Shown here: in pieces, positions 36,953 through 64,000 of the stretch
How the letters are laid out: the number at the start of each line of letters is the position of its first letter
How positions within the stretch are numbered: the stretch's first letter is position 1
From: Eubacteriales bacterium
GTDB taxonomy: Bacteria > Bacillota > Clostridia > Oscillospirales > CAG-272
DNA: 64,000 nucleotides
Assembly (NCBI GenBank): GCA_045643945.1
Contig: JAZRGA010000066.1
Span: 677-64,676, forward strand
Direction of reading: 5' to 3'
The notes under the pieces: model-generated
What the model saw: the letters and a program-made list of their open reading frames with translations, nothing else
Database searches by the model: none
Told to the model about the DNA's origin: nothing
Position numbers and translations under genes: made by a program

Positions 36953-36986
36953 ATTTGACCTCCGAGCTTAAAATTTAATGCCGTAT

Positions 36987-42900: not shown

Positions 42901-42941
42901 GCCAATAGAACGGTTATTATTTTTTTCATAAAGCTTTTCAT
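36987..42941 (-). CDS. Giant cell-surface protein, ~1984 aa, with a C-terminal TM anchor
   Basis: Signal peptide MKSFMKKIITVLLAIAMIVSSLPLGVIAA. Ig-like modules (LVYDGNEKKPQ...GTDYTVSYINNVDAGTA). TM helix VWIIPVAFVSVFGIGALTVLLI followed by RRKRKK. The ATG at 42941 is 8 nt after GGGAGG; the track start at 42947 is a GTG. Confidence 0.9.
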   Translation of the reverse strand: MKSFMKKIITVLLAIAMIVSSLPLGVIAATSDGTDPKPKTDGGEVAEKYNYYAADEYIEINDGYIRVRVSTSNGGFSVKTVEGDTLSKSDNDKDLIYSDAHFDTSFTSFRVTREGERRDYIFGRDYSNIGVQTSDVNVYKSADNAITAEWSVDGLYFKQIIALMGADTYQHGMAYISYSVANMIDNPLDSVEARVMMDTALGTKDFAYYMLAQSNGSYVSIDKEKTVSGSDYSNYFFAYDDKGAPTVTAYTLNASVAGESIKPTKVTFAHWANLASSVYDYTPSVNAPIDFTDPYGSAEYLTADSAVALYYDMFGDASSVSNGNIGLYYGVYSNAKAQNADIALNLISTGTMFFNDDKSAYKDINGELAGNFSTTMKVQNTTDKEISKLAIAVYPEEQILPYDGDSIVTDISAVKPYYKTVTQMKSGESLDVRFDFMVEPTISTGYRRIKIAIHDISSIEGLNDDNLILEDEIFILCPGASGEGLGFTGMTPEQVFVKGKRFAYITGTNFGLIRDKTQYRIILRPNNGGEDVVLDQDKVVVNTELNTITLVLDMELDATTYKVIIDWNDTTLEDVNNDALKLIVTDVPTKGDPGYVSSGVYGIVTVERNGTHYDIVNYPTEEDFKNTQTKQNDIMLVLRGDFNVLSTEGKGNYQAEGLTIMDGDIININEALDVKDGRVTVTKNFDENGNQTEITVDIDGKVYTTKENTKVWDGVLAITSFTEGTLYTLPIYSEQGILSYAQGEEDGEKITLLWPGAAGGMQTLVGLLLNFRYGEFALMKQGDSLARVVAFGASLDPSILVPNGTVGTQAHYSNLEKAHQKMGVSNYTAQQLRATDLKFRKDQMNWRDNQAGTLNMYIDDILFGAGGFIGFNTEISVGIPSYADGLPYIQGTLALKIINDYWEFGVEGKADMLVFEMEATLKLKSYNGIPVPDEIYFFIGGVTPGIPVDPFGVFWVRGAGAGISNMYETFFGRQTIPPITLLISGEFAIFSVLSARADVALSPQGISAALQNVGIAGITLIDYIGGSVYWYPNFSLSFGIRIDILDAIIGEGGVIVEERSSGIYFCGYARATLKIPDKIWIIGGLRLGSVGIGIDSDKVWGSAEIIGIGFGVKYYWGGSVDVSIGDSYDVPTPRNFAQLKAIPLYSDASGQTLYMDITNVSENGGLENTIINSTEDGREHRFVLSSEPNEDGMLVIGYDADNLLMAQDYKNNIAVSVLGSDYKLEWFDPAYEADHVANIGTNAIFTYDENSKRATVAISFVDPSCFDCEITVSTVTSSELSVLGIARTTSFSGVELNNDLSIATVSGKGLKLLSELGIYAEDKNGALYMLATVEGATLDEDVSNINVKIPENLPTGEYTLKAIGKVKDASGNDIASPMTESEFSYVNPNQPKALSGAQIQLNGNYTVSASFDCDNLYDGFMVTVYEKTADGYVATVYKDIDLSAESFKNESNLIAVIGGRYSSTDDNGVTTYYGLEAGKKYVISAQSYVLCEDGSRLLSEVILSNELTMVMPIETKPEFSIDGAVSVEVGESSIKVDTVNKNSVTVKIKGTEGIVSGAYILGNGEKVEWNGSDISFNGLEDGVYTLRVEGINETMDSFSAVYQFSIDTNAPGLFITSHQGGGLFSGSSITVSGSTEAYSRVEISILDGLSTVVYADKEGNFLGNVSVDESLAYQHLRIKATDGAGNESMPFGCTLTNEILGKEGIEAVILYQGKEIDAIDTDSNAKQLTFAFKMGNKYVTLNKNSSAYSRIEWKVDTVSRSASITEDGALSGDSGANGIVVATLDNMTAYVHLISLNLSSADISINAKEDELVYDGNEKKPQIAINGEISVNEGTDYTVSYINNVDAGTASAIIVATENGKCVGTNIVNFTIEKCKLSALDFELNADGNENPEFTLTQNGRALIADKDYTVSYKISEDGLHGVLTIEGKGNYEGIITQAYDIEKFDHLVWIIPVAFVSVFGIGALTVLLIRRKRKKSKATDIAE

Positions 42942-42977
42942 AATCACAACCTCCCGGGTTATCTGTGTTAATTTTAT

Positions 42978-45900
42978 TTACGCGGCAACAATAATAATTT
43001 TAAAGTAATCTCTGTTTTGGTTAACTACATAAAGCGTGTAAAGACCCGCTTCAAGCGCCCCAATACTCAACGACTTATCTAAGGTATAGTCACAAAGCGT
43101 CAAAGCGCCGTTTTTCATTTGGGCTACGGTGTTGTCACCGCTCTTTAATATTGCCTTATAATACAAGCCTTGGCAATCCACCGAAAGTAAAAGTTCCTTG
43201 CCTGCCGTAACCACTATACCCTCATCCCTCGAAAGCCTCTTATCACCGTATTCAACGAAAGGCTCGTAGAAGGAAACTATGCGAAGCTTACCCTCGACCA
43301 CCGTACTGTTTCCCGCCTCGTCTGTTGCCATATACTCGACGGTGCTAAGTCCGATTTCGTCTGTATTCTCGGTAAACCTTACCGAAAGCGTTAACTCTGT
43401 CGACTCTGCATCGAATGCGGCAAAGTTATTCATAAGCTCGTTTTCAATTGCTTCCCTATCGGTTTTCTCTCTTATCGATATGATTTTTTTATCTACGATA
43501 ATTTCAGGTCCTACCGTATCGGGAATATTTATTTTTGAAAATTGATGCGTTAATACGTTTCCGTATTCATCTGTCATCACGATATACGGCTGTATTCCTC
43601 CGTATATTTCGGGAACGGTAATCTCATTCCACTCATTTGCCGAAAGCTCAAGGCTTATTCCGCCCGATAGCTCTGCGCTCACACGTCTGTTAGGCTTAAC
43701 AAATATACTGTCGCCTATCCCGATTTGAAGCGATGCTACGTCGTCGATAAAATCAGTACCGTCAGGTGAAAGACTGTATTTTACCGAAAGCTCCTCGGTG
43801 ACTATTTCTGTAATTTCAAAGGTAATACCGCTTGAAAGTCCCGTCATATCAACAAATTCAAGTGAATACTCACGGTTTTCGGTATAGGTTGCGGTGTAGT
43901 AATATTTACCGTAACGCTCCTCGGTTGCATATCCGCCAACCTTGGTTATGACTCTTTCATTTGACTCCACCGTAATTTCAACGCTTCTGCCGTTCTTAGC
44001 AAGCCTGCGACTCACTATTTGAAGCTCGGGAGCATTCTTGTCTATAACGCTTACCGCTCCAAGCTTAACAGTAGCAGAGCTTCCGTTCTCGGCAACACCC
44101 TCAAGAATAATCTCGGAATGATTATCGGAATAAGTAACAGTTACGACGTTACCCGTAACAGCGAAGCTAACCGCCGTTTCATCGTATATGCTTTGAACGA
44201 AGATATTCTTAACGTCCTCGGTAAAGTATATTACCGCCGTTACGTCCTTGTTGGTAGCCTCAAAGGCGTTATTAGCCGACCACTCGACTCCGTCACCCTT
44301 AAGCGCCATTTCCTTAATAAATATCTCGCTTACCGAAATATCAACGCTTGATATTATCTCCTCACCGTTATAAATAAGCTTATACATTACCGAGTATTCA
44401 TCGTTGCTTGAATATTCAACGTAAGGCTTACCGTAGTATGCACTGCCTATATCCGACTCTATCTTAACAATCTCTGTGCCCAAGAACTCATAATGCTCTG
44501 CCACCTCGGGCATCAATATATATGCTTTAACAGAATCGTTTCCGATAGGAACCTTTACAACCCTCGGCGAGGGAGCTGCTCCTACGTTATCGACCTTAAA
44601 GGCTATCGACGTTGAATTATTGCTTGCATCTACAACGAAAAGCGAAAATTCAGCCTTTTCACTTACAGTAAGCAATCGGGAATTAACCGTTACACCGTCT
44701 ATTACGTCGCTTACTCCCGTTTCGTAATCGGGTGCTTCGGCGTAAAGTCCTCTCTTAATAAAGATACGCACTCTGCTCATATCCACCGTTTCGATAATAA
44801 AGCGGTAAGATGTGCTCCATCCGAGAGAGTCAAGCGCCTTAGTCATATCCGCTCGATTTCCGAGATATTCAAAGACTCTATATCCCGAATAATTGTTAAG
44901 CGCATTAGAGTTTCTTGCGTTCTCTACCCTTACAGAAAGCTTTTCATCGGAATAAACACCGTTCAGGTTGGAAAATGCCAATATTTGAACGTTTGGCGTT
45001 TCAAGGTCCTCGCCCTTTTCTTCGAACAAGGTAGGCGGCTCGTAAAGCTTAATATCAAGGCTTACGGCTATATCGCTATCAAGTCCTATCGATTCGTTTC
45101 CGAGTAATGCCGCTATATCCTCCTTTTTGAAGATATAAGTGCTATCGCCTCCGGGAACAAAGGTAAAGCTTGGCATTTTGCCTGTGTATTTATCCGTAAG
45201 AGCAAAATTGTTATCGGTCAGATAAACTGTTACACTTCCGTATCTGTATTTTTCACCGTTCTCGTCTACGTTGTATTCCTCGGTATCATAGCTCCAAGCA
45301 AGATACGGCGCAGGCTCAAGAATATTATCGACAGTGATATAATGCATCACTTCATATCCCTCGGAGTCGATATATCTGTAAGAAAATCTTGTGTTTTTAT
45401 TAACCGTTACAGATACACTCGAGGTATTGTTTGACTCAACGCTCATTATTGCGTAATCGTTAATATCGACGAATATCGGTCGTCCGTCGCTTCGGCTGAG
45501 TAAAACGGTTACGGGCATTGAGGTATCCTTTACCGTCGAAAGGCTTATCCGAGTTGTAGGGTCTTTCGACTCTGTAATCGAATAATCAAGCCTTATATTC
45601 TTACCGTAGGCATCACGGACCAATATCCGGTAATTACCGTTTTCAAAAATTCCCATTTCAATAGTTGACGTGTAATCAAAATTTCTGAATGAAAGCGAAA
45701 GCACCGCTCCGTTTTCCGTCATATTAACCGATTTCACAATATAATCGGTATAATAAAGCTCAACCGTACCCGTACTTGAATATTTATCACCGAATATATT
45801 ATAGCATTCAATGGTAAAGGAACGAACAGCTCTTGTTCCTGCGGGATTTTCTGCCGTTGCTCTCGGATTTGCCACGCTAAAGCTAAAGCCACGCTCACCT

Positions 45901-48900
45901 ATATATGCTCCGCAATATCCTATACTGTTTTCCTCACCTTGAAGCTTAACCGTGTAGGCGTTGTTTCCGAGGTCGCCTCCGCTAAAGGTTATCGTTGCGT
46001 CCTCCCAACGGATAAGCTCGAAATTATTTCCGTCCTCATAGTCAACCGTTGCCGAGGTCGAATACTGTGAATAGTTTTGCGACGTACCTCCCCAATATAT
46101 ATCATTAGTAACTATATTGAAAAGATTGTACTTAAGCTCGGTATTAGAAATCATCAAGGTTTCGGAAAGCGAATCTCCGTCCTCGGTGTTTTCGTATAAA
46201 TAATTTTCAAAGGACAAAAGATTTTTACCGAAATACTTTGGTTGATTGTAAGCAATTCTCCAAGATAGGAAGGAATCACCGACTACATACGGATCGTCGA
46301 AATAATTTCCGTAATAATCGATATTATATACATACTCGTACGCTTCTCCGCCCCAAACCTCATATCTTTTATGATCGCCTATCTGCGGAGCAACTATTGT
46401 AACTCCTCCGTACTCGTCGGTTGCAACGAATACCGCAGTGCAAAGCTCGTGATATTTCGGGAAGTCCGAGGTATAGCTGTTTTGCGTAAGGTCTGCAAAA
46501 TCCTCGACACGCAAGCCCGATTTTATAACCTCAAGTCGGTCCGCATTAGGATAATACATTCTCTCGGTAAGCGTATTGCCGTCATACTGTCCTACGTTAA
46601 TTCCGTAATTTGACCAGATGTCGACCCTCACGTTTCCGCTACCGTTCATCGAGTATGCGCTTTCGACGAAAAATCTTATACTGTGAGCATTTATCATTCC
46701 GTCCTGCTGCGAAACCTTATGCGACGGACGGTAATCGTCTATCGCAATATTAAGCTCGGGAGAATAATCGGTTACTATTATAGTAAACTGTCTAATCGGA
46801 GAAACGTATCCGTTTGAAAGCTTTACCTGATAGCATATCGTATTTACGCCCTTGACAAGGTAAAGGTCCTTAAAGCCGTCAATTCCCTTTGGAATATTTT
46901 GCGCATCATAAATATCGTCAGTACCCGTAAGGTAAATCAAGCAATCTTCATAATTTTTTATAAAGCCTTGATCGTTTATTTCCTTTGCGGTAGGCTCGCT
47001 AAGCATATTCCAGAACTTAAAGCCCTCAAGCGTGCCAACCTTTATTCCCTCGTAGACCTTTTCGCTATCGGGAAGCCTAAGACTCATACTAAATCCGCTT
47101 ACACCGTAGGAATAGAGTGCAAATACGTTGCTTCGCATTTTCTCTCCGCCAACGGTAACCGAAATTCCTACGCTTGAGTATGGCTTATCCTCTGCCTCAT
47201 GCTTTACCCAAGAATAACCCTTTTCCTCATCTACCGCAGTTATATCCGCCTTGGTTTGATAAGAATAAGACCAAAGACCTGCATTATCGGCTACCGTTGC
47301 ATCAAGCACAAGCCTTGAGGATTCATAAACGTCAATAGCTCCGCTATTGCTTATAACAGTAACCTTAAGGTAATAAGCGCCCGTTTTATAGTATTCGCCC
47401 GAATCTGTAAGATTTCCTACCGTAAAGAACTGTGAATTGCTTGCAAACAGTCCGCTTTGTCTTGCGACGGTTATCTGCTCGTTTCCGCTCTCTCCCGTCC
47501 ATATAAGCTCGGCATAGGAGCTTGCAAAATCAAAATCGAGCAAACCGAAATCGGCTCTGCGCATATTTGTAATCGAATAATGTATCTGCGTCTTACGCAT
47601 AGGGCTTACACCCTTGCTCGTCGCATTAAATTTATACGGGGCGCTACCCTTATCGGCATTTGCTACAACCACCGCGCCGTCCTTATCAACTATCTCACCA
47701 AAATCAACACTGTAAACGGTTTTCTCGGTATCATAAGGAGAAGCGTATCTGACAACGTAGTATGTAGAATCCTTAGAATAGCTGCCTATATCTGCCGCCT
47801 CATAAAAATACTGCGACGCTCTCGGAGTCATATCTCTGTATCCGTTTTCAAAGGATACACGAAGCTCTCCGTAATATTTAAATAGCTCGTAAAGAACGCT
47901 TTCGGAATTAAGCGTATATCCCTCGTTCACAAGCTCGGGAGCGGACACCTCGATATACTTGTCTACTCCAAGCCTTACACGGTACCAGCTTAATCCCTCA
48001 AAGCCAAGCACGTTAAAGGCTTCACCGCTTTTCACCACGGTAACGTAGGAATAATCCGAGCCGTCGGGAGTAAGAGTTACTCGGGTATAGCCGTCAACCC
48101 CTGCATGCGACACCCTTGGACCTGTAACGGTAATTTTATGATTTGTGCTTACCTTATTTAAATCGCCCTCATATTTAACTTCCGTCATAGGCTTCTCAAG
48201 GCTTACGCTAATACTCTTTGATATAGGCTCACTTTCGTTTCCGTATTCGTCGAACGCCTTTACCCAAACGGTATCGTTATAAACCTTGTCAAATTCCTCT
48301 CCGTTACCGCCGTAATGAAGACTTATCTTCTCGGTTATATCCTCGCCCGACGTAAATTCAAGCACCTGCCACTCAGCATTCTCAACGCTTGCGCCCACAC
48401 AATAAAGAATTCTCGTTATCTTACTGTCATCAAGCGCATTTATCGACAAATCAACGTCGATTTTCGTGTTATTATCAACGGCTTTCATTTCCTGAGATAT
48501 AAATTTAACCGTTGGAGCAGCTCCGTCGATAAAATAATCTATCACTCTCGGCGCTTCTGTATCGGTACTGTTTCCTACCGTATCACAAGCATTAACGCTT
48601 AGATAAAGGTCGTCGATATAAATATTTTCTCCGTTTATATACAGATGCAAATATTTATCTGTAGCCTTGTTGGCAATAGAATACACGCCAACAGGCACAG
48701 ACTGATTTTCGCAAAGCTCGAATGCTCCCGTATATCCGCTCTTAGACTCGGGAGGCGTTGCAGAATCGGAAAGCAGATATTTAACGCTTGCCTTTCCTAC
48801 TATTCCACCGCCTAAGCTTAGAGCCACCTTAGTTCCGAGCATTCCCGCAACCGTCTTATAATTTTCTACGTCGCAGGCCGAAACCAAAAGGCTTATATAA

Positions 48901-50816
48901 TGCTCGACACTACCGTTATCAAGCACCTCATCCCGCTTTGCAAAGCTTGATGCCTTAACGGTGGGAGCGCTTAAATCCGCATAAAGTATATTCGAAGGTA
49001 AAACTACGTTCGGATATGCCGTTTTGTCGGATATTTCATCACTCATTCGAGTTATAATAATTCTCGGCTCGACCTCATCTCCCTCGGGAACGTCAAGCTT
49101 TACGCAATCCTTAAGAGGTATATCCTCAAAAATCAATACCCAGCCGCGTCGGTCAACTCCGTAAACATCCTTTTTTTCATACTCGGATATATCCGTCGCT
49201 CTTGCGCTTAGAGGAGAGCCGTCCGACCTTAAAATATTAAACTCTATCTCAACCTGCCTTGCCTCGTCCTCGGTAAGCTCCTCGTTTATATAAACGTAAG
49301 CCGTCATCGAACCAAGGGGACCGACAAGCATATCGTTTAGACTCGTTTTATTTATCTCCTCTTTATCCTCTCGCACCTCAACCACGTTGGTATTATAGAT
49401 TTCAACCTCCACCGCCTCAAAGGTGTTACTGATAAAGCTTTGATTTCCAAATGACCAGTTGGTTATACTCGATACGTTTATTCCGTTACCCGCATAATCA
49501 CAGATAGCCGTTGTGTTTTTTCCGCATCTCCAATAATTAAATGATGACATCGAAATAATTCTGTTATTATAATCGACTGTATCGTAAGCGCTTACATACA
49601 TTTCATCCGCAAGGTCAATAGCTCCGTGAGTCAAATATCTCCACTTATTATCAAAGCTCGCCCTTAATATTCGGTTAACTCTGAAATTTTTATAATTATA
49701 AAGACCGATATCTCCACGGAATATCCATTTTTCGCCCTCTCGCTTTTGCAAATAAAGTCGAACGGTATCTCTTTTGTTATTGGAAAGATCAAGAAGCTCA
49801 AGCTCTATCCAAATATTATCAAGGTCCTTGCTTACGTCATCACTTGCAAACCTCAGGCTTTCGTTAAAGGATACCTCAAGCAAGAGATCCGCCGTATTAT
49901 CTGCCCTCACCTCTCGCTTAAGCTCTATATGCTTAACCGATGGAGCGGTATCGTCGATAAGCGTAATATGGAAATCCGTCATTACGTTATTTACCAAGCT
50001 CGAATTGTTGTCGGCATTGAAATAAATTATCGTCCACGTATCCAAATCGCTAAGCGGAAACTTTACCGTTAGCCTTTGCGGCTCTCCGTCAGTAACTCGT
50101 CCGCTTGCAGTTGCCGAATTACTTCCGTCGCCCGACACGCTTATCGAGCCTCTACCCGATAAAAGCGTTGCTCCGACCTGAACGTATATTTGATCGGCTC
50201 TAAGTCCCAACGAATTACTTAAATATCCCGAAAGGATATCCTTAAATTCGCCGTTTCCGTCCGTATCCTGCCAATCGTCCAAAAGCCTTGTGCTTATTCC
50301 TCCGTTTGTTACAGTAAGCTCGGAATGAAGCATTTGTGAGCCCTCGGCAAGAATTCCCGATCGCCCCTCTCTAAAGGGTAAATCGTTTTTAACGGTCATA
50401 TCATCATTGTGGTCTATCCATACCGTATAGTCAAACCACGGCGCTATTGAAGCTGTGTAATATGGACTTTGATTTTCAAGCTTATAATTATGAGTGCCGT
50501 ACGCTCCAAAGAAATCTGCGCTTAAGCTTTCGTAATTATCCGAGTTATATATCGGATAGGTGTCAACCGATATATCCACGTCGTACGGATTTTTGCTAAC
50601 CGTCGGAATTTTAATATCATCAAGTGACGTCGGGGGCTTCACCTCGTTTTCCCGAAGCTCACCGCTCTCGCCACCACTGTCCGCAAAAATCTCTGCAGCA
50701 GAGCTTACAGGCATTATCGACATATTAAATAGCATCGTCAGCGCAAGCGTCGATGATAAAAATATCTTGAAAAATCCTTTCAACCGATTTTCGCGGCTTT
50801 TTTTCATACTTATCAT
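42978..50816 (-). CDS. Giant secreted/surface protein, 2612 aa, with no recognisable C-terminal anchor
   Basis: Signal peptide FKIFLSSTLALTMLFNMSIMPVSSAAE. Repeated D-x-x-A/G-P-x-V/I/L domain-start motifs (DDTAPSVK, DLSAPTVK, DGAAPTVK, DKNAPELQ, DTVGPEII). Ends ...YFKIIIVAA with no TM helix plus basic tail. ACGGAGG SD. Confidence 0.9.
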   Translation of the reverse strand: MISMKKSRENRLKGFFKIFLSSTLALTMLFNMSIMPVSSAAEIFADSGGESGELRENEVKPPTSLDDIKIPTVSKNPYDVDISVDTYPIYNSDNYESLSADFFGAYGTHNYKLENQSPYYTASIAPWFDYTVWIDHNDDMTVKNDLPFREGRSGILAEGSQMLHSELTVTNGGISTRLLDDWQDTDGNGEFKDILSGYLSNSLGLRADQIYVQVGATLLSGRGSISVSGDGSNSATASGRVTDGEPQRLTVKFPLSDLDTWTIIYFNADNNSSLVNNVMTDFHITLIDDTAPSVKHIELKREVRADNTADLLLEVSFNESLRFASDDVSKDLDNIWIELELLDLSNNKRDTVRLYLQKREGEKWIFRGDIGLYNYKNFRVNRILRASFDNKWRYLTHGAIDLADEMYVSAYDTVDYNNRIISMSSFNYWRCGKNTTAICDYAGNGINVSSITNWSFGNQSFISNTFEAVEVEIYNTNVVEVREDKEEINKTSLNDMLVGPLGSMTAYVYINEELTEDEARQVEIEFNILRSDGSPLSARATDISEYEKKDVYGVDRRGWVLIFEDIPLKDCVKLDVPEGDEVEPRIIITRMSDEISDKTAYPNVVLPSNILYADLSAPTVKASSFAKRDEVLDNGSVEHYISLLVSACDVENYKTVAGMLGTKVALSLGGGIVGKASVKYLLSDSATPPESKSGYTGAFELCENQSVPVGVYSIANKATDKYLHLYINGENIYIDDLYLSVNACDTVGNSTDTEAPRVIDYFIDGAAPTVKFISQEMKAVDNNTKIDVDLSINALDDSKITRILYCVGASVENAEWQVLEFTSGEDITEKISLHYGGNGEEFDKVYNDTVWVKAFDEYGNESEPISKSISVSLEKPMTEVKYEGDLNKVSTNHKITVTGPRVSHAGVDGYTRVTLTPDGSDYSYVTVVKSGEAFNVLGFEGLSWYRVRLGVDKYIEVSAPELVNEGYTLNSESVLYELFKYYGELRVSFENGYRDMTPRASQYFYEAADIGSYSKDSTYYVVRYASPYDTEKTVYSVDFGEIVDKDGAVVVANADKGSAPYKFNATSKGVSPMRKTQIHYSITNMRRADFGLLDFDFASSYAELIWTGESGNEQITVARQSGLFASNSQFFTVGNLTDSGEYYKTGAYYLKVTVISNSGAIDVYESSRLVLDATVADNAGLWSYSYQTKADITAVDEEKGYSWVKHEAEDKPYSSVGISVTVGGEKMRSNVFALYSYGVSGFSMSLRLPDSEKVYEGIKVGTLEGFKFWNMLSEPTAKEINDQGFIKNYEDCLIYLTGTDDIYDAQNIPKGIDGFKDLYLVKGVNTICYQVKLSNGYVSPIRQFTIIVTDYSPELNIAIDDYRPSHKVSQQDGMINAHSIRFFVESAYSMNGSGNVRVDIWSNYGINVGQYDGNTLTERMYYPNADRLEVIKSGLRVEDFADLTQNSYTSDFPKYHELCTAVFVATDEYGGVTIVAPQIGDHKRYEVWGGEAYEYVYNIDYYGNYFDDPYVVGDSFLSWRIAYNQPKYFGKNLLSFENYLYENTEDGDSLSETLMISNTELKYNLFNIVTNDIYWGGTSQNYSQYSTSATVDYEDGNNFELIRWEDATITFSGGDLGNNAYTVKLQGEENSIGYCGAYIGERGFSFSVANPRATAENPAGTRAVRSFTIECYNIFGDKYSSTGTVELYYTDYIVKSVNMTENGAVLSLSFRNFDYTSTIEMGIFENGNYRILVRDAYGKNIRLDYSITESKDPTTRISLSTVKDTSMPVTVLLSRSDGRPIFVDINDYAIMSVESNNTSSVSVTVNKNTRFSYRYIDSEGYEVMHYITVDNILEPAPYLAWSYDTEEYNVDENGEKYRYGSVTVYLTDNNFALTDKYTGKMPSFTFVPGGDSTYIFKKEDIAALLGNESIGLDSDIAVSLDIKLYEPPTLFEEKGEDLETPNVQILAFSNLNGVYSDEKLSVRVENARNSNALNNYSGYRVFEYLGNRADMTKALDSLGWSTSYRFIIETVDMSRVRIFIKRGLYAEAPDYETGVSDVIDGVTVNSRLLTVSEKAEFSLFVVDASNNSTSIAFKVDNVGAAPSPRVVKVPIGNDSVKAYILMPEVAEHYEFLGTEIVKIESDIGSAYYGKPYVEYSSNDEYSVMYKLIYNGEEIISSVDISVSEIFIKEMALKGDGVEWSANNAFEATNKDVTAVIYFTEDVKNIFVQSIYDETAVSFAVTGNVVTVTYSDNHSEIILEGVAENGSSATVKLGAVSVIDKNAPELQIVSRRLAKNGRSVEITVESNERVITKVGGYATEERYGKYYYTATYTENREYSLEFVDMTGLSSGITFEITEIVTEELSVKYSLSPDGTDFIDDVASLQIGIGDSIFVKPNRRVSAELSGGISLELSANEWNEITVPEIYGGIQPYIVMTDEYGNVLTHQFSKINIPDTVGPEIIVDKKIISIREKTDREAIENELMNNFAAFDAESTELTLSVRFTENTDEIGLSTVEYMATDEAGNSTVVEGKLRIVSFYEPFVEYGDKRLSRDEGIVVTAGKELLLSVDCQGLYYKAILKSGDNTVAQMKNGALTLCDYTLDKSLSIGALEAGLYTLYVVNQNRDYFKIIIVAA

Positions 50817-59132: not shown

Positions 59133-60092
59133 TCATTTAAGTAACGCCTTCTTCACCTTTTCAAAATTCTCCTCAACCGAGTCTGCGCCGTCTAAATAAA
59201 GAATATCACACGAAAGCATTTTTTGCCACTCGTCGTGCTTTGCCTTACTGCGAATATCAAGCCCGCCCGTATCGTATTGCTTTGCCCACTCAACAAATTC
59301 GATGTATTTATTATATCTATCTCCGCCGACGTCAATGCGTGAGCCGTAGCGCTCCATTTCTCTTTGCTTTAGCCTTTCAATGCGAATCGACTGTTCAAGA
59401 ACTATTCTTACCGCCAAAGTAAATTGCGACGTCAATTCATCGCCCCAACCGACAAGCGAGCCCGAAATTACGACGTTTTCGGCTTTATCAATATCGGCTT
59501 GCATAAGCTTAACTCTTTCGCTCGGTGAACGCTTTACCGTAAATTTTTGCTCGGTCGGCATCCAATAATAATCGTCACTGTCAATATGTGTATAGCCTAA
59601 TTCCTCGCATATTTTTCTGCCGAGCGTGGTAGTCCCCGAGCCAGATGCGCCAAAGATGTGAATTATATTCTTTTTTGGCTTTTTCCCTAAAAGAAAATCG
59701 TTTGCCTCTGTTAATATTCTTTTATTATTATCAAATTGAAAAAGCTTTATAGCAGTTTCGTAATCAACCAATAAAGCCTCGGAAAGCTCTGTTTTTTGAT
59801 GAGTAAATCGTTGATTTGAATACTCACCTAAAAAATATACCACCTGCTTTAAGCATTTTTCCTTTCTCGGAAGCGAATATTCGACCACCGTTCTGAAACC
59901 GCGAAGCAGGTCTATTTTTACACCGACCTCCTCAAAAACCTCTCTTAAGGCGGTCTGCTCCTCTGTTTCGCCTGCTTCTACATGTCCCTTAGGAAAGCCG
60001 TAAGTTCCCGTCAAGCTGCGAATTAATAAATATTTTATTTTATTATTAACTCGAGTAAAAACAACCGCGCCACAGGATTTTTCCTTTATCAC
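59133..60092 (-). CDS. Nudix hydrolase fused to a P-loop (adenylate-kinase-like) domain
   Basis: Nudix box GHVEAGETEEQTALREVFEEVGV. C-terminal half has IFGASGSGTTTLG. The apparent start is a GTG, 8 nt after GAGG. Confidence 0.8.
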   Translation of the reverse strand: MIKEKSCGAVVFTRVNNKIKYLLIRSLTGTYGFPKGHVEAGETEEQTALREVFEEVGVKIDLLRGFRTVVEYSLPRKEKCLKQVVYFLGEYSNQRFTHQKTELSEALLVDYETAIKLFQFDNNKRILTEANDFLLGKKPKKNIIHIFGASGSGTTTLGRKICEELGYTHIDSDDYYWMPTEQKFTVKRSPSERVKLMQADIDKAENVVISGSLVGWGDELTSQFTLAVRIVLEQSIRIERLKQREMERYGSRIDVGGDRYNKYIEFVEWAKQYDTGGLDIRSKAKHDEWQKMLSCDILYLDGADSVEENFEKVKKALLK

Positions 60093-60119
60093 AATAAATA
60101 CCTCGCTTAAATTACAGTC

Positions 60120-60599
60120 TTAATCCTCGATTTCGGTGCGAAGCGTAAATACCTCGGGAAGATTGTGAATTTCCTTTTTCAAGAATATCGGATAAAAATA
60201 TTCATCCTTTAATCTATCAAGCGCAAGCCACTCAAAATGATGAGTTCGGTTGCCCTCCATCGAAGAAAATTGCTCGCCACGCGATAATAAGTCGGTGTCG
60301 GATATGTCCACAAGAAAATAAATGCATAGCTCATGATAGCGAAGCTTGTCTACATCCTCTGTAAAAAACGCCTGATTTAACCAAAGAGGACGAATTATTT
60401 TAGGCGTAACACCAAGCTCCTCCCCTACCTCACGAATAACGGCTGCCTCCGCAGTTTCACCCATTCCAACCCTGCCACCGGGTAAGTAATAAAACGGTGA
60501 ACGGTCGTCGCGCATAGCCAGAATTTTGCCGTTATTAATCATCATAGCGCAGACTCTGTAATTAAATTTTCCGTTTTCAACCTTAAATGAAATATCCAT
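60120..60599 (-). CDS. Nudix hydrolase
   Basis: Nudix box GGRVGMGETAEAAVIREVGEELGV. The ATG at 60599 is 5 nt after GGAGG. The track start at 60605 is a GTG inside the SD. Confidence 0.85.
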   Translation of the reverse strand: MDISFKVENGKFNYRVCAMMINNGKILAMRDDRSPFYYLPGGRVGMGETAEAAVIREVGEELGVTPKIIRPLWLNQAFFTEDVDKLRYHELCIYFLVDISDTDLLSRGEQFSSMEGNRTHHFEWLALDRLKDEYFYPIFLKKEIHNLPEVFTLRTEIED

Positions 60600-60702
60600 A
60601 CGCACCTCCGAAAATTAATTTAACAAACTGATTATAGCACAAAAAAACACAAATGTAAATAGAAAAGCAGAGTTTTTGCAAACTAAAACACCCGTAAAAC
60701 AC

Positions 60703-60730
60703 AAAAACCCCTGCCGAAACAGAGGTTTTT
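60703..60730 (-). terminator. Terminator closing cassette A (bidirectional shape)
   Basis: CCCCTG-CCGAAA-CAGAGG (one mismatch) flanked by A5 and T5. Confidence 0.55.
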
Positions 60731-60748
60731 GTATATAAAAAATATCAA

Positions 60749-60854
60749 ATTATCTATTTGAGCTTTAAGAACACTGTCACATATCGTGAGTAAGTGTTGC
60801 ACCAAAATCACACCAACATTCAACGCTGTTCTGGTCGATAAATTGGAATTGGAT
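60749..60854 (-). repeat. 3' cassette module, copy A (one TATCGTG unit plus GCACCAA/ACACCAA repeats)
   Basis: Aligns with 61379..61561: ATTATCT.TTTGAG...ATATCGTGAGTAAGTGTTGCACCAAAATCACACCAACATTCAACGCTGTTCTGGTCGATAAATTGGAAT. Abuts the stop codon at 60855. Confidence 0.8.
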
Positions 60855-61223
60855 TTACTTTTTTCTACTTTTCTTAACGTCTCTTTCTATAATGTATCGC
60901 AGTATATCTGTATCAAAATCTTGAAAAACAAATGGTTTAATCATTGATTTGGCTAATTTGGGATGTTTCGAATAATTTCTTATCGAATAAATTGATAGTG
61001 TTGGATATAAGAATGAGGCAAGAAAACACAATCCGGAAACAATAAACATCATTATTCTTGCGGCATATTCTGTTTTTTCATATAATAAAGCGAACAATAA
61101 AAAGAAAACGAAAAAAATGAAGAATAGTATAGAAGCAAAAGCTAAAGAAAACTTTACATAGTTGATATACTCTTTTTTTATATTCCCATTGAATATATCT
61201 TTTTTCATATCAAACACCTCCAT
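60855..61223 (-). CDS. Small membrane protein, 122 aa (two TM helices)
   Basis: Hydrophobic segments FSLAFASILFFIFFVFFLLFALLY and IMMFIVSGLCFLASFLY. GGAGGTG SD. AT-rich codon usage. Confidence 0.7.
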   Translation of the reverse strand: MEVFDMKKDIFNGNIKKEYINYVKFSLAFASILFFIFFVFFLLFALLYEKTEYAARIMMFIVSGLCFLASFLYPTLSIYSIRNYSKHPKLAKSMIKPFVFQDFDTDILRYIIERDVKKSRKK

Positions 61224-61230
61224 TCATCAA

Positions 61231-61290
61231 ATTCAAGTTTATCTATTAGTTGTATTATACCATAAAAACGGTGAAAAGTAAATAGGACGG
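61231..61290 (-). promoter_or_regulatory. Duplicated 60-bp promoter segment, copy 1 (drives 60855..61223)
   Basis: Identical to 62502..62561. Minus strand reads TTTACT, 17 nt ending in TGG, TATAAT (-10 at 61259..61254). Confidence 0.6.
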
Positions 61291-61318
61291 CTCATTTCTT
61301 TACAAATTGAACACAATA

Positions 61319-61349
61319 CAAAAACAGCACCCACCTGAGTGAGTGCTGT
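61319..61349 (-). terminator. Rho-independent terminator closing cassette B
   Basis: Minus strand reads ACAGCAC-TCACTCAGGTGG-GTGCTGT followed by TTTTTG. Lies downstream of the TATCGTG array. Confidence 0.65.
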
Positions 61350-61378
61350 AATTTTTGAAATAATCGCCGTAAGGCTGT

Positions 61379-61561
61379 GATTATCTCTTCGAGTTTTGAG
61401 AGTACCGTTTTATATCGTGAATATCGTAAAATATCGTGTGATATCGTGCATTTATCGTTTGATATCGTGAATATCGTGAGTATCGTCGCATAAAGTGTTG
61501 CACCAAATTTGCACCAAAATTACACCAGCATTCAACGCTGTTCTGCTCGACAAATTGGAAT
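61379..61561 (-). repeat. 3' cassette module, copy B (eight phased TATCGT units plus TTGCACCAAA repeats)
   Basis: TATCGT starts at 61413, 61422, 61432, 61442, 61453, 61463, 61472 and 61481 (spacing 9-11 bp). Then AAGTGTTGCACCAAATTTGCACCAAAATTACACCAGC. Abuts the stop codon at 61562. Confidence 0.9.
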
Positions 61562-62482
61562 TTACTGAACATTAGAGATAAGTTGTTCACTGCAGTATGG
61601 ATATGTCCAATTGTTTTGCTTTTTAAACTCTAAAACATCTTCCGCATTACATATAAAACCGTTGTATGATTCATTGGAATACATAACCATTACACCTTTT
61701 TCTTTATCATAGTTGCCGTCTTTATCGGTAATAACCCAAAGAGTTATGCTGTAAGAAGTGTATTCATCTGTCTTTTTCCAATCAGGATTATCGTGGTGTT
61801 GATGAACTCCGTATATTTCATGTAATATTTTCCCATCCGCATCCACTTGAAGAATACTATTATATCTGTGCGGAAAAGTATCCGGATTTGCCAAATTTAA
61901 TGTTTTAGAATAGTCATTTAATATTTTGTTACATTCGACCGAACTGAGGGAATATGTGTTCTTTCCCAAAGCTTTATAATCTGTGATTGGATAAGAAATA
62001 CATTTACTTTTATCTATCGGTTTATTCCAATCATTTTCTTCTTTTAACTTATCCTTGTTTTGCAAGTAGAATTCTTCTGTTTTATTCTTTAGATGATCCT
62101 CTTTAAATCCCTCATATAAGTGTTCAGACTCTATAAAGGTCAATTCATAATTCATTTCGGGATAAAAATATACGTTGCTGTCATCACAAGTTTGAGAAAT
62201 GATTAAGCAAAAAACTTGATCGCTATAATCTTCGCAATAAGAAAATAGTGTTCTGCCGTAATCATCCTGTTCCCAAATATAAATAACCGAGTCGTATGCT
62301 CCCTCACCATGATACATATATCCTTCGGCATCAGGAATGCTATAAATTGCGGTGGTATATAGTTCTTTATATTCTCCACGATACGGAAAAGGATTTTCTC
62401 TATTGAACACACATCCGGATAGCCCCAATGAACAAGTAAATAAAATAATGCTACATAACACTAAGGATAATACTTTTTTCAT
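61562..62482 (-). CDS. Hypothetical lipoprotein, 306 aa
   Basis: Signal and lipobox MKKVLSLVLCSIILFTCSLGLSGC. AAGGAGGGA SD. AT-rich codon usage. Confidence 0.8.
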   Translation of the reverse strand: MKKVLSLVLCSIILFTCSLGLSGCVFNRENPFPYRGEYKELYTTAIYSIPDAEGYMYHGEGAYDSVIYIWEQDDYGRTLFSYCEDYSDQVFCLIISQTCDDSNVYFYPEMNYELTFIESEHLYEGFKEDHLKNKTEEFYLQNKDKLKEENDWNKPIDKSKCISYPITDYKALGKNTYSLSSVECNKILNDYSKTLNLANPDTFPHRYNSILQVDADGKILHEIYGVHQHHDNPDWKKTDEYTSYSITLWVITDKDGNYDKEKGVMVMYSNESYNGFICNAEDVLEFKKQNNWTYPYCSEQLISNVQ

Positions 62483-62501
62483 TTAAATCCCTCCTTGTAA
62501 T

Positions 62502-62561
62502 ATTCAAGTTTATCTATTAGTTGTATTATACCATAAAAACGGTGAAAAGTAAATAGGACGG
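62502..62561 (-). promoter_or_regulatory. Duplicated 60-bp promoter segment, copy 2 (drives 61562..62482)
   Basis: 60 of 60 identical to 61231..61290. The -10 TATAAT is at 62530..62525 on the minus strand. Confidence 0.6.
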
Positions 62562-62570
62562 CGGAAGAAA

Positions 62571-62735
62571 ATGAATTGACGGCAAGCCGTCATGAATTGA
62601 AGCCTTGCGGCTTCATGATTTGAAATCTGCGATTTCATGAATTGAATTGCCCTGTTTCTCTAATGCCGCAGGCAATTCATGCACTGTTGTGCAATTCATG
62701 GCGTCAGCCAATTCATGCCCGCAAGGGCAATTCAT
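62571..62735. repeat. Mirror-symmetric mini-hairpin array: 4 x ATGAATTG then 4 x CAATTCAT
   Basis: Forward 8-mers at 62571, 62592, 62615 (ATGATTTG) and 62637. Reverse-complement 8-mers at 62673, 62692, 62709 and 62728. Every spacer is a distinct short hairpin. Confidence 0.85.
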
Positions 62736-62753
62736 TGTTCTCCAAGAGATAAC

Positions 62754-62809
62754 AAAAAAGGCTCTGCAGTTGCAGAACCTTTTTTGCAAGTTTCGACCAA
62801 AGGTCGAAA
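62754..62809 (-). terminator. Terminator region closing cassette C (two hairpins)
   Basis: GGCTCTGCA-GT-TGCAGAACC (one mismatch) flanked by A6 and T6 (62754..62785), plus TTTCGACC-AAA-GGTCGAAA (62791..62809). Confidence 0.6.
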
Positions 62810-62970
62810 TTATCTCTTTGAGTTTTAACAACGCCGTTTGATATCGTGAATATCGTGTAATATCGTGTGATATCGTGCATTTATCGTGTGTTTTCGTGCG
62901 ATATCGTGAATATCGTGAGTATCGTTTGATAAAGTGTTGCACCAAATTTGCACCAACTCACACCAACATA
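62808..62970 (-). repeat. 3' cassette module, copy C (nine phased TATCGT units plus TTGCACCAA repeats)
   Basis: TATCGT (one TTTCGT) starts at 62842, 62851, 62861, 62871, 62882, 62892, 62902, 62911 and 62920. Then AAGTGTTGCACCAAATTTGCACCAACTCACACCAAC. Abuts the stop codon at 62971. Confidence 0.9.
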
Positions 62971-63990
62971 TCAAGTTAACTTGATAGTAATCATAGGTAC
63001 AATGCCACCACAATTAAAGTTCACGATGCCTCTGTCACTAACTGTACCATCGTAGTTTACTTCCCACATCTTGAACCTATCATTTTTAGAAGGCGTTCTT
63101 AAGCTCCATCTGTTTCTCGCACCCTGTAACCACGCATATTGAGAAGCTTCATATTTTCTGTTATCATCAGCCTCATCATATAATACATTAAAACCATATT
63201 GAGCCGATAAGACCTCGTTTAATGACGGCAGACAGATCTTGTCTGTTTCGGTTACTTCACGCACAGCAACAGGCATAAGAATATTTTGTTCTTCTTCCGA
63301 AAATACCGCATTCAAAAATGTAGAGTTTAACCATTTTCTTGCGAAGCAGAAATTATAGTTGTTGGGGTCATATGCTCTCGCAGATTTGCCGTTTATGGTA
63401 GAATAGAAAACACTTCGTTCTGAACTAAAGGGATTGGCGTCAATGATAGAATCACAAATCAAGGTAGCCACTCCATCAGATTCATCTAATATTCTCCATT
63501 TAATAGGTAACCACTTGTACCAATATACATTTCCTTTGGTATGCCCCAAGTTCATTTGATGGCTAAAACAATTGGAAGTGCCATATTCATCAGCCAAATC
63601 GGGCTTGTACTCTCTAAAGTATACGCCGCGGTATCTTTCTCCATCAAGTTCAATGTCTTTGTACCAGCATTTATCCCGATAATACTTTAGTTCATCAAAT
63701 GTATCCCATGTTCGTGTATCAATAGAGTGTTCAGTAGATCCAGCCAATTTATCAAGAGCATTCAGAAGATCGATGTCTTCTACCTCTGCTTGCGGATAGT
63801 AGCCCATTAAAATATGTGTACCCTTCTCGGAGTATGCCCCTGCTTCTGTAACTCTTTTATAAACAAAGTGCTGGGTATTATGAGAAGCCTTGGCATTCAC
63901 ACCTTTATCAAGGCTTTGACTTCCATCATTAAGTTTGATGCTTGGCACAACGCCATTTGTCGTTTTTTCAACAACATAATCATAGAACAT
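62971..63990 (-). CDS. DUF6273-like protein (possibly 5'-incomplete)
   Basis: Pattern IKWRILDESDGVATLI...RKWLNSTFLNAVFSEEEQ...ICLPSLNEV...RWSLRTP...GIVPMITI. The frame stays open from the ATG at 63990 to the window edge, and no SD is visible, so the true start may lie outside the window. Confidence 0.75.
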   Translation of the reverse strand: MFYDYVVEKTTNGVVPSIKLNDGSQSLDKGVNAKASHNTQHFVYKRVTEAGAYSEKGTHILMGYYPQAEVEDIDLLNALDKLAGSTEHSIDTRTWDTFDELKYYRDKCWYKDIELDGERYRGVYFREYKPDLADEYGTSNCFSHQMNLGHTKGNVYWYKWLPIKWRILDESDGVATLICDSIIDANPFSSERSVFYSTINGKSARAYDPNNYNFCFARKWLNSTFLNAVFSEEEQNILMPVAVREVTETDKICLPSLNEVLSAQYGFNVLYDEADDNRKYEASQYAWLQGARNRWSLRTPSKNDRFKMWEVNYDGTVSDRGIVNFNCGGIVPMITIKLT

Positions 63991-64000
63991 ATCACCATAG

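Follow-up and report, generated by a model that had tools for sequence, protein, structure and literature searches.

What kind of element is the 165-nt run of short repeated words and small hairpins at positions 62571–62735 of the window, the whole 64,000-nucleotide stretch of DNA analysed here, and does it have a partner? The run is an ORF-less ('orphan') copy of a widespread hairpin-ladder family, which in gut and rumen Clostridia is the non-coding partner of genes for the Avd-like '23S rRNA-intervening sequence protein' (IVP; PF05635/TIGR02436).

On the plus strand, the 8-mer ATGAATTG is found at 62571, 62592 and 62637, with the variant ATGATTTG at 62615, and CAATTCAT follows at 62673, 62692, 62709 and 62728. 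All eight words of the 4+4 mirror layout described in the original prediction are located by these positions. The exact 8-mer has nine occurrences on both strands of the 64-kb window against 3.0 ± 1.8 expected, a number that none of 100 shuffles reached, and seven of the nine fall inside the 165 nt. Every gap of the ladder is a perfect small hairpin that uses TG/CA of the adjoining words; folding confirmed that each gap holds a different self-complementary hairpin, as had been proposed. The hairpin assigned to the central gap is also present, although the centre holds in addition a doubled word, ATGAATTGAATTG (62637–62649). The statement that several loops are of the TTGC or GCAA (GNRA) type does not hold, since a single GNRA loop occurs on each strand and the loop type varies across the family. 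Both strands fold far better than shuffled controls, with −71.4 kcal/mol (z = −5.2) for the plus strand and −68.7 kcal/mol (z = −4.7) for the minus strand; in neither case did any of 200 shuffles equal the value.

All features described below lie on the minus strand. The first is the leading hairpin h0, UGUUAUCUCUUGGAGAACA (62736–62754), whose 3' end abuts the first 8-mer. A hairpin h0 precedes the first word in most family members, and in the window its outer part (62736–62743) may form a closing helix with 62563–62570; an inverted repeat of 16 nt with 81% complementarity was detected for this part of the element. The 5' half (62673–62735) contains four AUGAAUUG words, the minus-strand reading of those at 62728, 62709, 62692 and 62673, and the hairpins h1 (62716–62729), h2 (62699–62710) and h3 (62680–62693). 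It is followed by a central segment (62650–62674) with h4 (62664–62674, UGCCUGCGGCA) and then CAUUAGAGAAACAGGG; the 'CAUUA..GG' after h4 is conserved in the family. The 3' half (62571–62649) begins with the doubled word CAAUUCAAUUCAU (62637–62649) and continues with h5 (62621–62637), CAAAUCAU (62615–62622), h6 (62598–62615), CAAUUCAU (62592–62599), h7 (62577–62592) and a last CAAUUCAU (62571–62578). Together with the U-rich tail AUUCAUUUUC, h7 is terminator-like. The layout can be written as h0 – (AUGAAUUG – hairpin) x4 – CAUUA..GG – CAAUUCAAUUCAU – (hairpin – CAAUUCAU) x3. Because all hairpins are of the form UG...CA, only UGAAU and AUUCA are left as 5-nt linkers.

The element is placed between two protein genes, and not in helix 25 or 45 of 23S rRNA. 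Directly upstream of it, a terminator-like hairpin with a 16-pair stem and a T-run (62787–62752) ends the DUF6273 gene unit. The promoter of the downstream lipoprotein gene (62553–62525; TTTACT, a 17-nt spacer and TG-TATAAT) begins 17 nt past the element, within a 61-nt block that is repeated exactly at 61231–61291. The genes at the window junctions are short and separately promoted and share repeated junction modules; one of the three junctions carries a ladder. The original prediction placed the array between a terminator and a promoter, which stands, and regarded it as an insertion relative to the paralogous junction, which is less clear. That junction differs by an indel of ~160 nt, has a different terminator and contains a possible remnant of the last word (61292–61311), so that an insertion cannot be polarised. 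Neither a promoter dedicated to the window copy nor, anywhere in the 64-kb window, an IVP homologue was found. Since the copy follows a terminator and precedes a promoter, its transcription would depend entirely on read-through.

A pattern of three words with gaps of 9–15 nt matches at least 120 loci in a species-level genome collection, as expected if other copies of the element exist. Nearly all are MAGs of gut or rumen Clostridia (Oscillospiraceae, Acutalibacteraceae and Christensenellales), a few matches being unrelated plain tandem repeats from other phyla; the relatives are MAG contigs throughout. The full ++++---- architecture, with four words, a doubled-word centre and four reverse-complement words, is seen in dozens of loci. 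The word numbers of the two halves are sometimes unequal, and some arrays are one-sided (L072, L008, L097, L116 with 11 units, and L063 with half-ladders at four successive junctions). Among 39 pattern matches in viral contigs, about six are true ladders, none with an IVP gene, and the remainder are plain tandem repeats. Many copies follow terminators, and linkage to tRNA genes is absent in this family. The genes downstream of orphans have no common function, which looks more like the dispersal of a mobile or duplicating module than like a regulon.

A scan of positions 60000–64000 against Rfam 15 gave nothing on the element at E ≤ 10. In 18 related loci, a scan at gathering scores likewise gave no match on the element; one 5S gene was detected 4 kb away, and no other rRNA adjoins. 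The literature searched on the IVS protein, TIGR02436/PF05635, HEPN/DGR, RNA motifs and STRR does not describe the ladder or inverted arrays around IVP genes, and the main text of a survey of structured RNAs in microbiomes does not mention the ladder (PMC8040213). As far as we could find, this first ladder family is undescribed.

To examine covariation, we used a gapless 'skeleton' alignment of 68 distinct elements with fixed windows around each word. It replaced a MAFFT alignment on which RNAalifold returned a ladder in shifted register, a result that we distrust because all words are identical. Hairpins h1, h2, h3, h6 and h7 show abundant double changes; one pair of h2, for example, is AU in 30 elements, GC in 23, CG in 12, UA in one and unpaired in two. 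Changes on both sides of a pair amount to 373 cells, against 125 in shuffles (0/500), and the covariation score of the whole structure is 0.265, against 0.083 when shuffled and 0.02–0.08 with slid partners. The compensatory variation of stems noted within the single locus is therefore borne out across many genomes. It is seen between copies of one genome as well, where L012 and L041 have diverged by loop changes and compensatory stem changes.

The alignment also contains a helix, P1, in which the first word and the 5' arm of h1 pair with the bases before the doubled word (UGAAUUGCCCU with AGGGCAAUUCA in the window). Its 5' strand is the first word UGAAUUG with the h1 arm CCCU (62724–62734), 11 nt that are 100% complementary to the 3' strand, the central AGGG with CAAUUCA (b0; 62643–62653). 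P1 extends at least 3 bp past the word in 34 of 41 elements and in 55 of 65 of an independent sample; the same extension for the other three words is 0.2–1.8 bp. Over its 12 pairs, 89.5% of positions are paired and the covariation is 0.25, against 0.075 in shuffles (0/500). The pattern of substitutions shows that selection for pairing acts on the hairpins and on P1. P1 and h1 use the same nucleotides and are mutually exclusive; the energies of the P1 fold and the h1 fold are almost equal (+1.6 ± 4.1 kcal/mol). The element looks bistable because both helices are kept in spite of this competition at nearly equal energy. A central helix formed by the fourth word instead of the first was also considered and fails the same covariation test.

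The pairing between the 8-mers of the two halves is a different matter. No variation is seen in these rungs among family members, and A·A mismatches stand uncompensated in two of the four (in 46 and 26 of the 68 elements), since the third and the last 3' word are often CAAAUCAU. As they never vary, the rungs are neither supported nor rejected within the family. A strict stack of four-way junctions, suggested in the original prediction, is unproven, given rungs that never covary and the two that carry A·A.

Several observations indicate which strand is used. Many copies are preceded by TATAAT and a 5' hairpin and followed by a ribosome-binding site and ATG, and the gene downstream of the ladder is co-oriented in 24 cases against 8. 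G·U exceeds A·C in the stems of the sense strand by 40:19 among the 68 distinct elements, and by 18:7 and 32:11 in further tallies. Hairpin h5 has a conserved non-Watson-Crick UGGAG...CGAGA loop in 46 of the 68 elements. The strand biases are modest, and all these counts ignore phylogeny. On the basis of this layout, the co-orientation, the G·U excess and the h5 loop, we take the minus strand as the functional one.

In nine of about 45 elements found by the pattern, an ORF of ~118 aa begins 11–20 nt past the last word. Its product matches PF05635, '23S rRNA-intervening sequence protein', with E = 3e-26 and TIGR02436, 'four helix bundle protein', with E = 8e-30, and it is ~50% identical to PDB 2RLD (E = 6e-27). 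Annotations of such 'four helix bundle' proteins, after which rRNA intervening sequence proteins are named, run to thousands of genomes. To our knowledge, IVP is a 13-kDa helical bundle without known catalytic activity, and we know of no function for PF05635/TIGR02436 outside diversity-generating retroelements (DGRs). The first family sample had been ascertained by the words themselves; we therefore also examined a sample based on IVP, which is independent of the words. This protein-side search, which makes no use of the DNA pattern, found at least 555 loci encoding IVP relatives. Among the best 80 of these, the ladder ends 15–21 nt before the ATG in all 78 close loci that have enough upstream DNA. 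A cis-regulatory leader is expected to keep its place and direction before genes of a single family, as the ladder does in these 78 loci; a structure with covariation support and alternative folds, also characteristic of such leaders, is present.

IVP-linked ladders occur in two contexts. In one, a promoter is dedicated to the ladder; in the other, the ladder directly follows a gene for a 23S rRNA methyltransferase (RumA/RlmD-like), the last codons of which enter the first word. The order rumA–ladder–IVP is maintained over many species. In one locus, L081, the ORF lies between the two halves, an arrangement seen once. The ladder of L079 is longer and fully symmetric and includes a further pair of complementary linkers, CAUUAAGG/CCUUAAUG. 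Inspection of the sequence revealed no Shine-Dalgarno pairing with the leader that would sequester the ribosome-binding site. The neighbours of the inspected IVP-linked loci are unrelated housekeeping-type ORFs. No ORF of reverse transcriptase size and no template or variable repeat (TR/VR) was found near these loci, and we rejected a DGR reading of the IVP-linked ladders on this ground. IVP gave no match in PADLOC or PHROG, and the true ladders among the viral-contig matches have no IVP gene; a defence or phage origin was rejected.

A second ladder family emerged from L030. Upstream of an IVP with 43% identity, this locus carries TATATCATCA three times and TGATGATATA three times, the words being separated by hairpins. 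A scan for this type found at least 120 further loci in the same bacteria, 18 of which adjoin an IVP of a second clade; word type and IVP clade are associated. The linker of type 2 is unrelated to that of type 1, and the architecture is the same. Here, too, h0 and the centre compete: the 5' arm and loop of this first hairpin pair with the centre, with a mean of 9.0 consecutive pairs; at least seven are consecutive in 39 of 57 elements, in 28 sequence combinations. Type 2 is, by all appearances, the same bistable design realised with unrelated sequence. In 29 of 43 scanned loci it comes 53–107 nt after a tRNA or tmRNA gene in the same orientation, together with the terminator of that gene; the genes concerned are of many identities. 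The last hairpin shares positions with the −35 box of the IVP promoter. Lying beside a −35 box, or across it, would suit a DNA operator as well.

Loci in other phyla were collected with the Bacteroides IVP (2RLD) as query and come from Bacteroidota, Cyanobacteria, Chloroflexota and others. Plain tandem heptamers upstream of the IVP gene are accompanied by their reverse complement downstream in 64 of 74 loci, against 26 in a direct-orientation control. Examples are (TTGACAA)4-ORF-(TTGTCAA)4, (TTGATAA)9...TTATCAA, (TGCTGAR)n...(YTCAGCA)n and (RAATGCA)n...(TGCATTY)n. The words vary by lineage, and what stays is the complementarity of the flanks. Uninterrupted duplexes of ~30 bp are predicted for these plain cassettes; the ladder form contains no continuous duplex of RNase III length. 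The sense duplex is more stable than the antisense one in 50 loci and less so in 24 (p = 0.003, phylogeny ignored). The mirror rule, in which a word array is followed by an array of its reverse complement, holds at the level of sequence for two unrelated ladder families and for the heptamer arrays. With two unrelated linkers and many lineage-specific heptamers keeping it, the complementarity of the halves that was pointed out for the window copy is a general property.

The closest known relative of the ladder is the ORF-bearing 23S rRNA intervening sequence (IVS) of Leptospira and Coxiella (PMC4990558). In Coxiella, an S23p ORF lies within the stem of the IVS, which RNase III cleaves (PMC4990558). 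Both systems involve the same protein family, PF05635, and an ORF with mutually complementary flanks able to form a stalk; L081 and the plain heptamer cassettes have the ORF within the stalk, and gene-less versions exist. In contrast to the IVS, the ladders are intergenic, type 1 coming after a gene for a 23S rRNA methyltransferase and type 2 after one for tRNA or tmRNA. Their stalk is split into words of 8 or 10 nt, each step bearing a hairpin that varies. In the ladder clade the ORF comes after both halves, and there is an extra covarying helix that competes with the first hairpin.

Other known systems share single traits with the ladder. Avd of DGRs, a nucleic-acid-binding partner, is homologous to IVP, and the family forms pentamers of four-helix bundles, but the inspected IVP loci lack the reverse transcriptase and the template/variable repeat. 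The STRRs of heterocystous cyanobacteria are tandem 7-nt words in and near genes for stable RNAs, and heptamers of this kind bracket the cyanobacterial IVP loci L277 and L319; unlike the ladder, STRRs have no hairpins between the units. STRRs are reportedly repeats of unknown role, and we found no paper that links them to IVP genes or notes the inverted-array rule. Sponge RNAs such as CsrB/RsmZ and leaders of the TRAP type also present many short words spaced by hairpins, and a homo-oligomeric partner is plausible here too; however, the word of the ladder is in the linkers and not in the loops, and there is a second, reverse-complement array. The pneumococcal BOX and RUP repeats, representing Firmicutes, and REP/BIME elements likewise have an intergenic position, a modular build, strong folding and a changing number of units. 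They keep the sequence of the unit within a genome, whereas the ladder keeps only the linkers and the pairing and has a dedicated partner gene.

We propose that the ladder, read from the minus strand, is the stalk of an IVS-like cassette that works at the level of RNA, with the window copy as an orphan, a reading to which we give about an even chance. The ladder would act as an RNA whose complementary arrays, together with P1, bring about a compact fold, a stalk or junction, corresponding to the stem in a 23S rRNA intervening sequence. This structure may be processed in the manner of RNase III, bound by a pentameric IVP, or both, and the alternative between h1 and P1 could serve as a conformational switch. 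Binding by IVP, to the ladder as RNA or as DNA, is the putative form that the protein-binding array of the original prediction would take. We rate the proposal no higher in view of the placement upstream of promoters, the invariant and imperfect rungs, the one-sided arrays and the unrelated neighbours of orphans.

Some of these same traits would suit selfish mobile DNA, with the IVP cassette as a foldback-type element with terminal inverted repeats made of short tandem words, the orphans as MITE-like non-autonomous derivatives, and the hairpins and symmetry serving transposition or integration. An IVP gene is nearby in only about one fifth of the pattern-found ladders, orphans are dispersed before unrelated genes in unrelated intergenic contexts, many copies sit after terminators, and plain IVP cassettes are wedged into short intergenic spacers. 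The placement of type 2 after tRNA and tmRNA genes (29/43) resembles an insertion preference, and the literature calls IVSs selfish elements (PMC4990558). We nevertheless consider this reading unlikely. No target-site duplication, recombinase gene or transposase gene was seen beside any locus inspected, and IVP is a small helical bundle for which we know of no catalytic activity. Within one genome, copies differ by loop changes and compensatory stem changes and are not near-identical (L012 and L041), orthologous orphans keep their structure by compensation (L065 and L073), the rumA–ladder–IVP synteny spans many species, and the G·U bias points to one RNA strand. For the MITE-like candidate of the original prediction, inverted symmetry is present, a duplication was not seen at the flanks of ten orphans, and same-genome copies have diverged. 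Its REP/BIME-like candidate, mobilised by a RAYT (Y1 transposase) or representing an IS200/IS605-type hairpin end, is very improbable. A short conserved word beside each hairpin, inverted units and intergenic copies recall such elements; REP/BIMEs, however, are many copies of the same imperfect palindrome with a conserved 5' tetranucleotide, and the seven hairpins of the ladder all differ, with only the pairing kept within an array; homologous hairpins, also between copies of one genome, change by compensation. The linked gene belongs to PF05635, and the ORF lists of nine IVP-linked loci contain nothing resembling a transposase. The suggested single-strand recombination substrate, in the form of an attC-like site of a local gene-cassette array, is very improbable as well. 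The window copy does sit at a junction of short genes that share junction modules, and L063 has its half-ladders at successive junctions, but two of the three window junctions lack a ladder and most family members are outside cassette arrays. Direct-repeat words around many hairpins differ from attC, where the R''-L''/L'-R' core sites surround a single imperfect hairpin, and no integrase-like ORF is present in the last 13 kb of the window or in the lists of the loci inspected.

If the element acted as duplex DNA, the words could be an operator array of four direct and four inverted sites for IVP or another regulator of the adjacent promoter. The spacing of about two helical turns and the association of word type with IVP clade are compatible with this, and the array is always near a promoter: ending 17 nt short of the −35 box in the window, overlapping that box in type 2 and just past the −10 box in IVP-linked type 1. 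An operator leaves unexplained why each spacer is a different perfect palindrome kept by compensation, why P1 covaries, why G·U is in excess and why lineage-specific heptamers keep nothing but their complementarity, and we regard it as quite improbable. A further RNA-level alternative is an arrangement like a type III toxin–antitoxin system, in which a repeat-array RNA is processed by the protein encoded downstream and neutralises it. The succession of promoter, short-repeat array and small protein gene does resemble toxI-toxN. ToxIN systems are characterised by identical RNA repeats and an RNase of the ToxN/AbiQ fold, whereas the ladder units are non-identical and the protein is a PF05635 four-helix bundle homologous to Avd. 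There is no PADLOC match and no terminator between array and gene, and the mirror half is without a counterpart in ToxI; the chance that the ladder is such a system is very small.

A broader version of the RNA-level, IVS-like reading is doubtful: IVP genes and complementary arrays might form one widespread, unrecognised class of RNA-level cassettes in and beside stable-RNA and other transcription units in many bacterial phyla, with the Clostridial ladders as the most elaborate form, bistable RNAs read by pentameric IVP, and the orphans acting in trans. If true, it would provide a function for rRNA intervening sequences, for the 'four helix bundle protein' family and for the cyanobacterial STRR heptamers together. 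IVP genes have a specific non-coding partner, inverted heptamer arrays in many phyla and covarying ladders in gut Clostridia. These arrays give a handle on IVP with which RNA binding, RNase III processing and autoregulation become testable, and the usual place of the ladder before an IVP gene ties it to the old puzzle of rRNA intervening sequences. With hundreds of members, strong covariation and no Rfam entry, the ladder is a candidate new structured RNA of the gut and rumen microbiome.

For the window copy itself, the proposal would mean an RNA made by read-through only, acting at most as a decoy in trans or as an insulating structure between two cassette genes. The consequence for the host is probably small, since the orphan lies between a terminator and a promoter. 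In the subfamily to which the copy belongs, h5 is of the Watson-Crick type and the third 3' word is CAAAUCAU; its other members are L004, L006, L020, L030, L035, L047, L059, L065 and L073, of which L035 is near-identical to the window copy. In this sample, the subfamily is met only without an adjacent IVP gene. The window copy, its close relatives and the entire type 2 are placed just after a terminator and upstream of the next promoter, so that they would yield RNA by read-through only. The stems of the subfamily show compensatory changes between species, orthologous sites included (L065 and L073), which indicates that it is not simply decaying.

An exact 61-nt repeat occurs twice in the window (61231-61291 and 62502-62562) and contains a promoter composed of TTTACT, a 17-nt spacer and TG-TATAAT. 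This block serves two unrelated small genes, one for a membrane protein of 122 aa and the other for a lipoprotein of 306 aa, and it is also present, with other genes, in three related loci (L006, L035 and L059). The recurrence of one promoter block before unrelated genes, both here and in these loci, suggests that the region is an array of swappable gene cassettes, each separately promoted.

The cassettes of the window share a junction module of approximately 250 nt, with 81-93% identity between copies, which includes arrays of the word CACGATAT. Two such arrays, at 62848-62917 and 61419-61478, lie on the minus strand (ATATCGTG on the plus strand), and a lone copy is found at 60788. Each array comprises 6-7 words with a phase of 9-10 nt, is located immediately 3' of a cassette gene and is preceded by TTGGTGCAAATTTGGTGCAA direct repeats. 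No hairpins and no second orientation are observed in the CACGATAT arrays of the window. A 110-aa ORF called on the minus strand (62613-62945) spans the hairpin ladder and one of these arrays; its translation, RYSRYSRY..., identifies it as a repeat artefact and not a gene.

In many species, the type-1 ladder, the family to which the window copy belongs, starts within the last codons of a gene for a RumA/RlmD-like 23S rRNA methyltransferase, approximately 200 nt upstream of the start of the intervening-sequence protein (IVP) gene (L133, L135, L136, L139-L151 and others). The order rumA, ladder, IVP is therefore a conserved synteny, and constitutes a further tie of IVP elements to rRNA biology. 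In these overlapping ladders, hairpin h0 is coding and the stop codon lies inside h1. In 46 of 68 elements of the family, hairpin h5 (columns 97-111 of alignment A2) contains a conserved motif that is rich in purines and non-Watson-Crick: UGGAG-stem-CGAGA, with AAUCAU after it. The window copy lacks the UGGAG-stem-CGAGA motif, in which the G·A pairs are possibly sheared and in tandem, as in a K-turn or loop E.

In one-sided arrays (L063, 600-4200; L116, 1600-1960; L072, L008 and L097), as many as 11 ATGAATTG-hairpin units are present and the mirror half is missing. L063 has an additional unit type, in which GTGAAGTT is combined with a hairpin; it is found at four cassette junctions in a row. 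In L130, L138, L175 and L185, the IVP ORF is followed by a lone 5' half-ladder, approximately 350-440 nt after the IVP start, and then by the next gene. Given this position of the half-ladder, a CAAUUCAU array and an AUGAAUUG array bracket the ORF, an arrangement that permits alternative pairings.

Bracketing of IVP genes extends to several phyla, where, in 64 of 74 loci (L240-L319), the PF05635 'four helix bundle' gene has tandem heptamers on its 5' side and the reverse complement of these heptamers on its 3' side (for example L241, 300-1250; L302, L319, L296 and L309). These genes are often squeezed into a short spacer separating two host genes. In the cyanobacterial loci, the heptamers are STRR-like.

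Ladders of the second family, type 2 (L320-L438; L030, 1877-2023), use the linker TATATCATCA/TGATGATATA; the window word CACGATAT bears a loose likeness to TATATCATCA. A tRNA or tmRNA gene with its terminator lies 53-107 nt before the ladder in 29 of the 43 loci scanned, and these RNA genes have many different identities. The -35 box (TTGATT) of the promoter after the ladder is part of the last hairpin.

Elsewhere in the window, the minus strand at 31166-50816 contains a run of three giant ORFs, which are 1928, 1986 and 2612 aa long. A signal-like N-terminal sequence on the largest indicates that they are probably cell-surface proteins.
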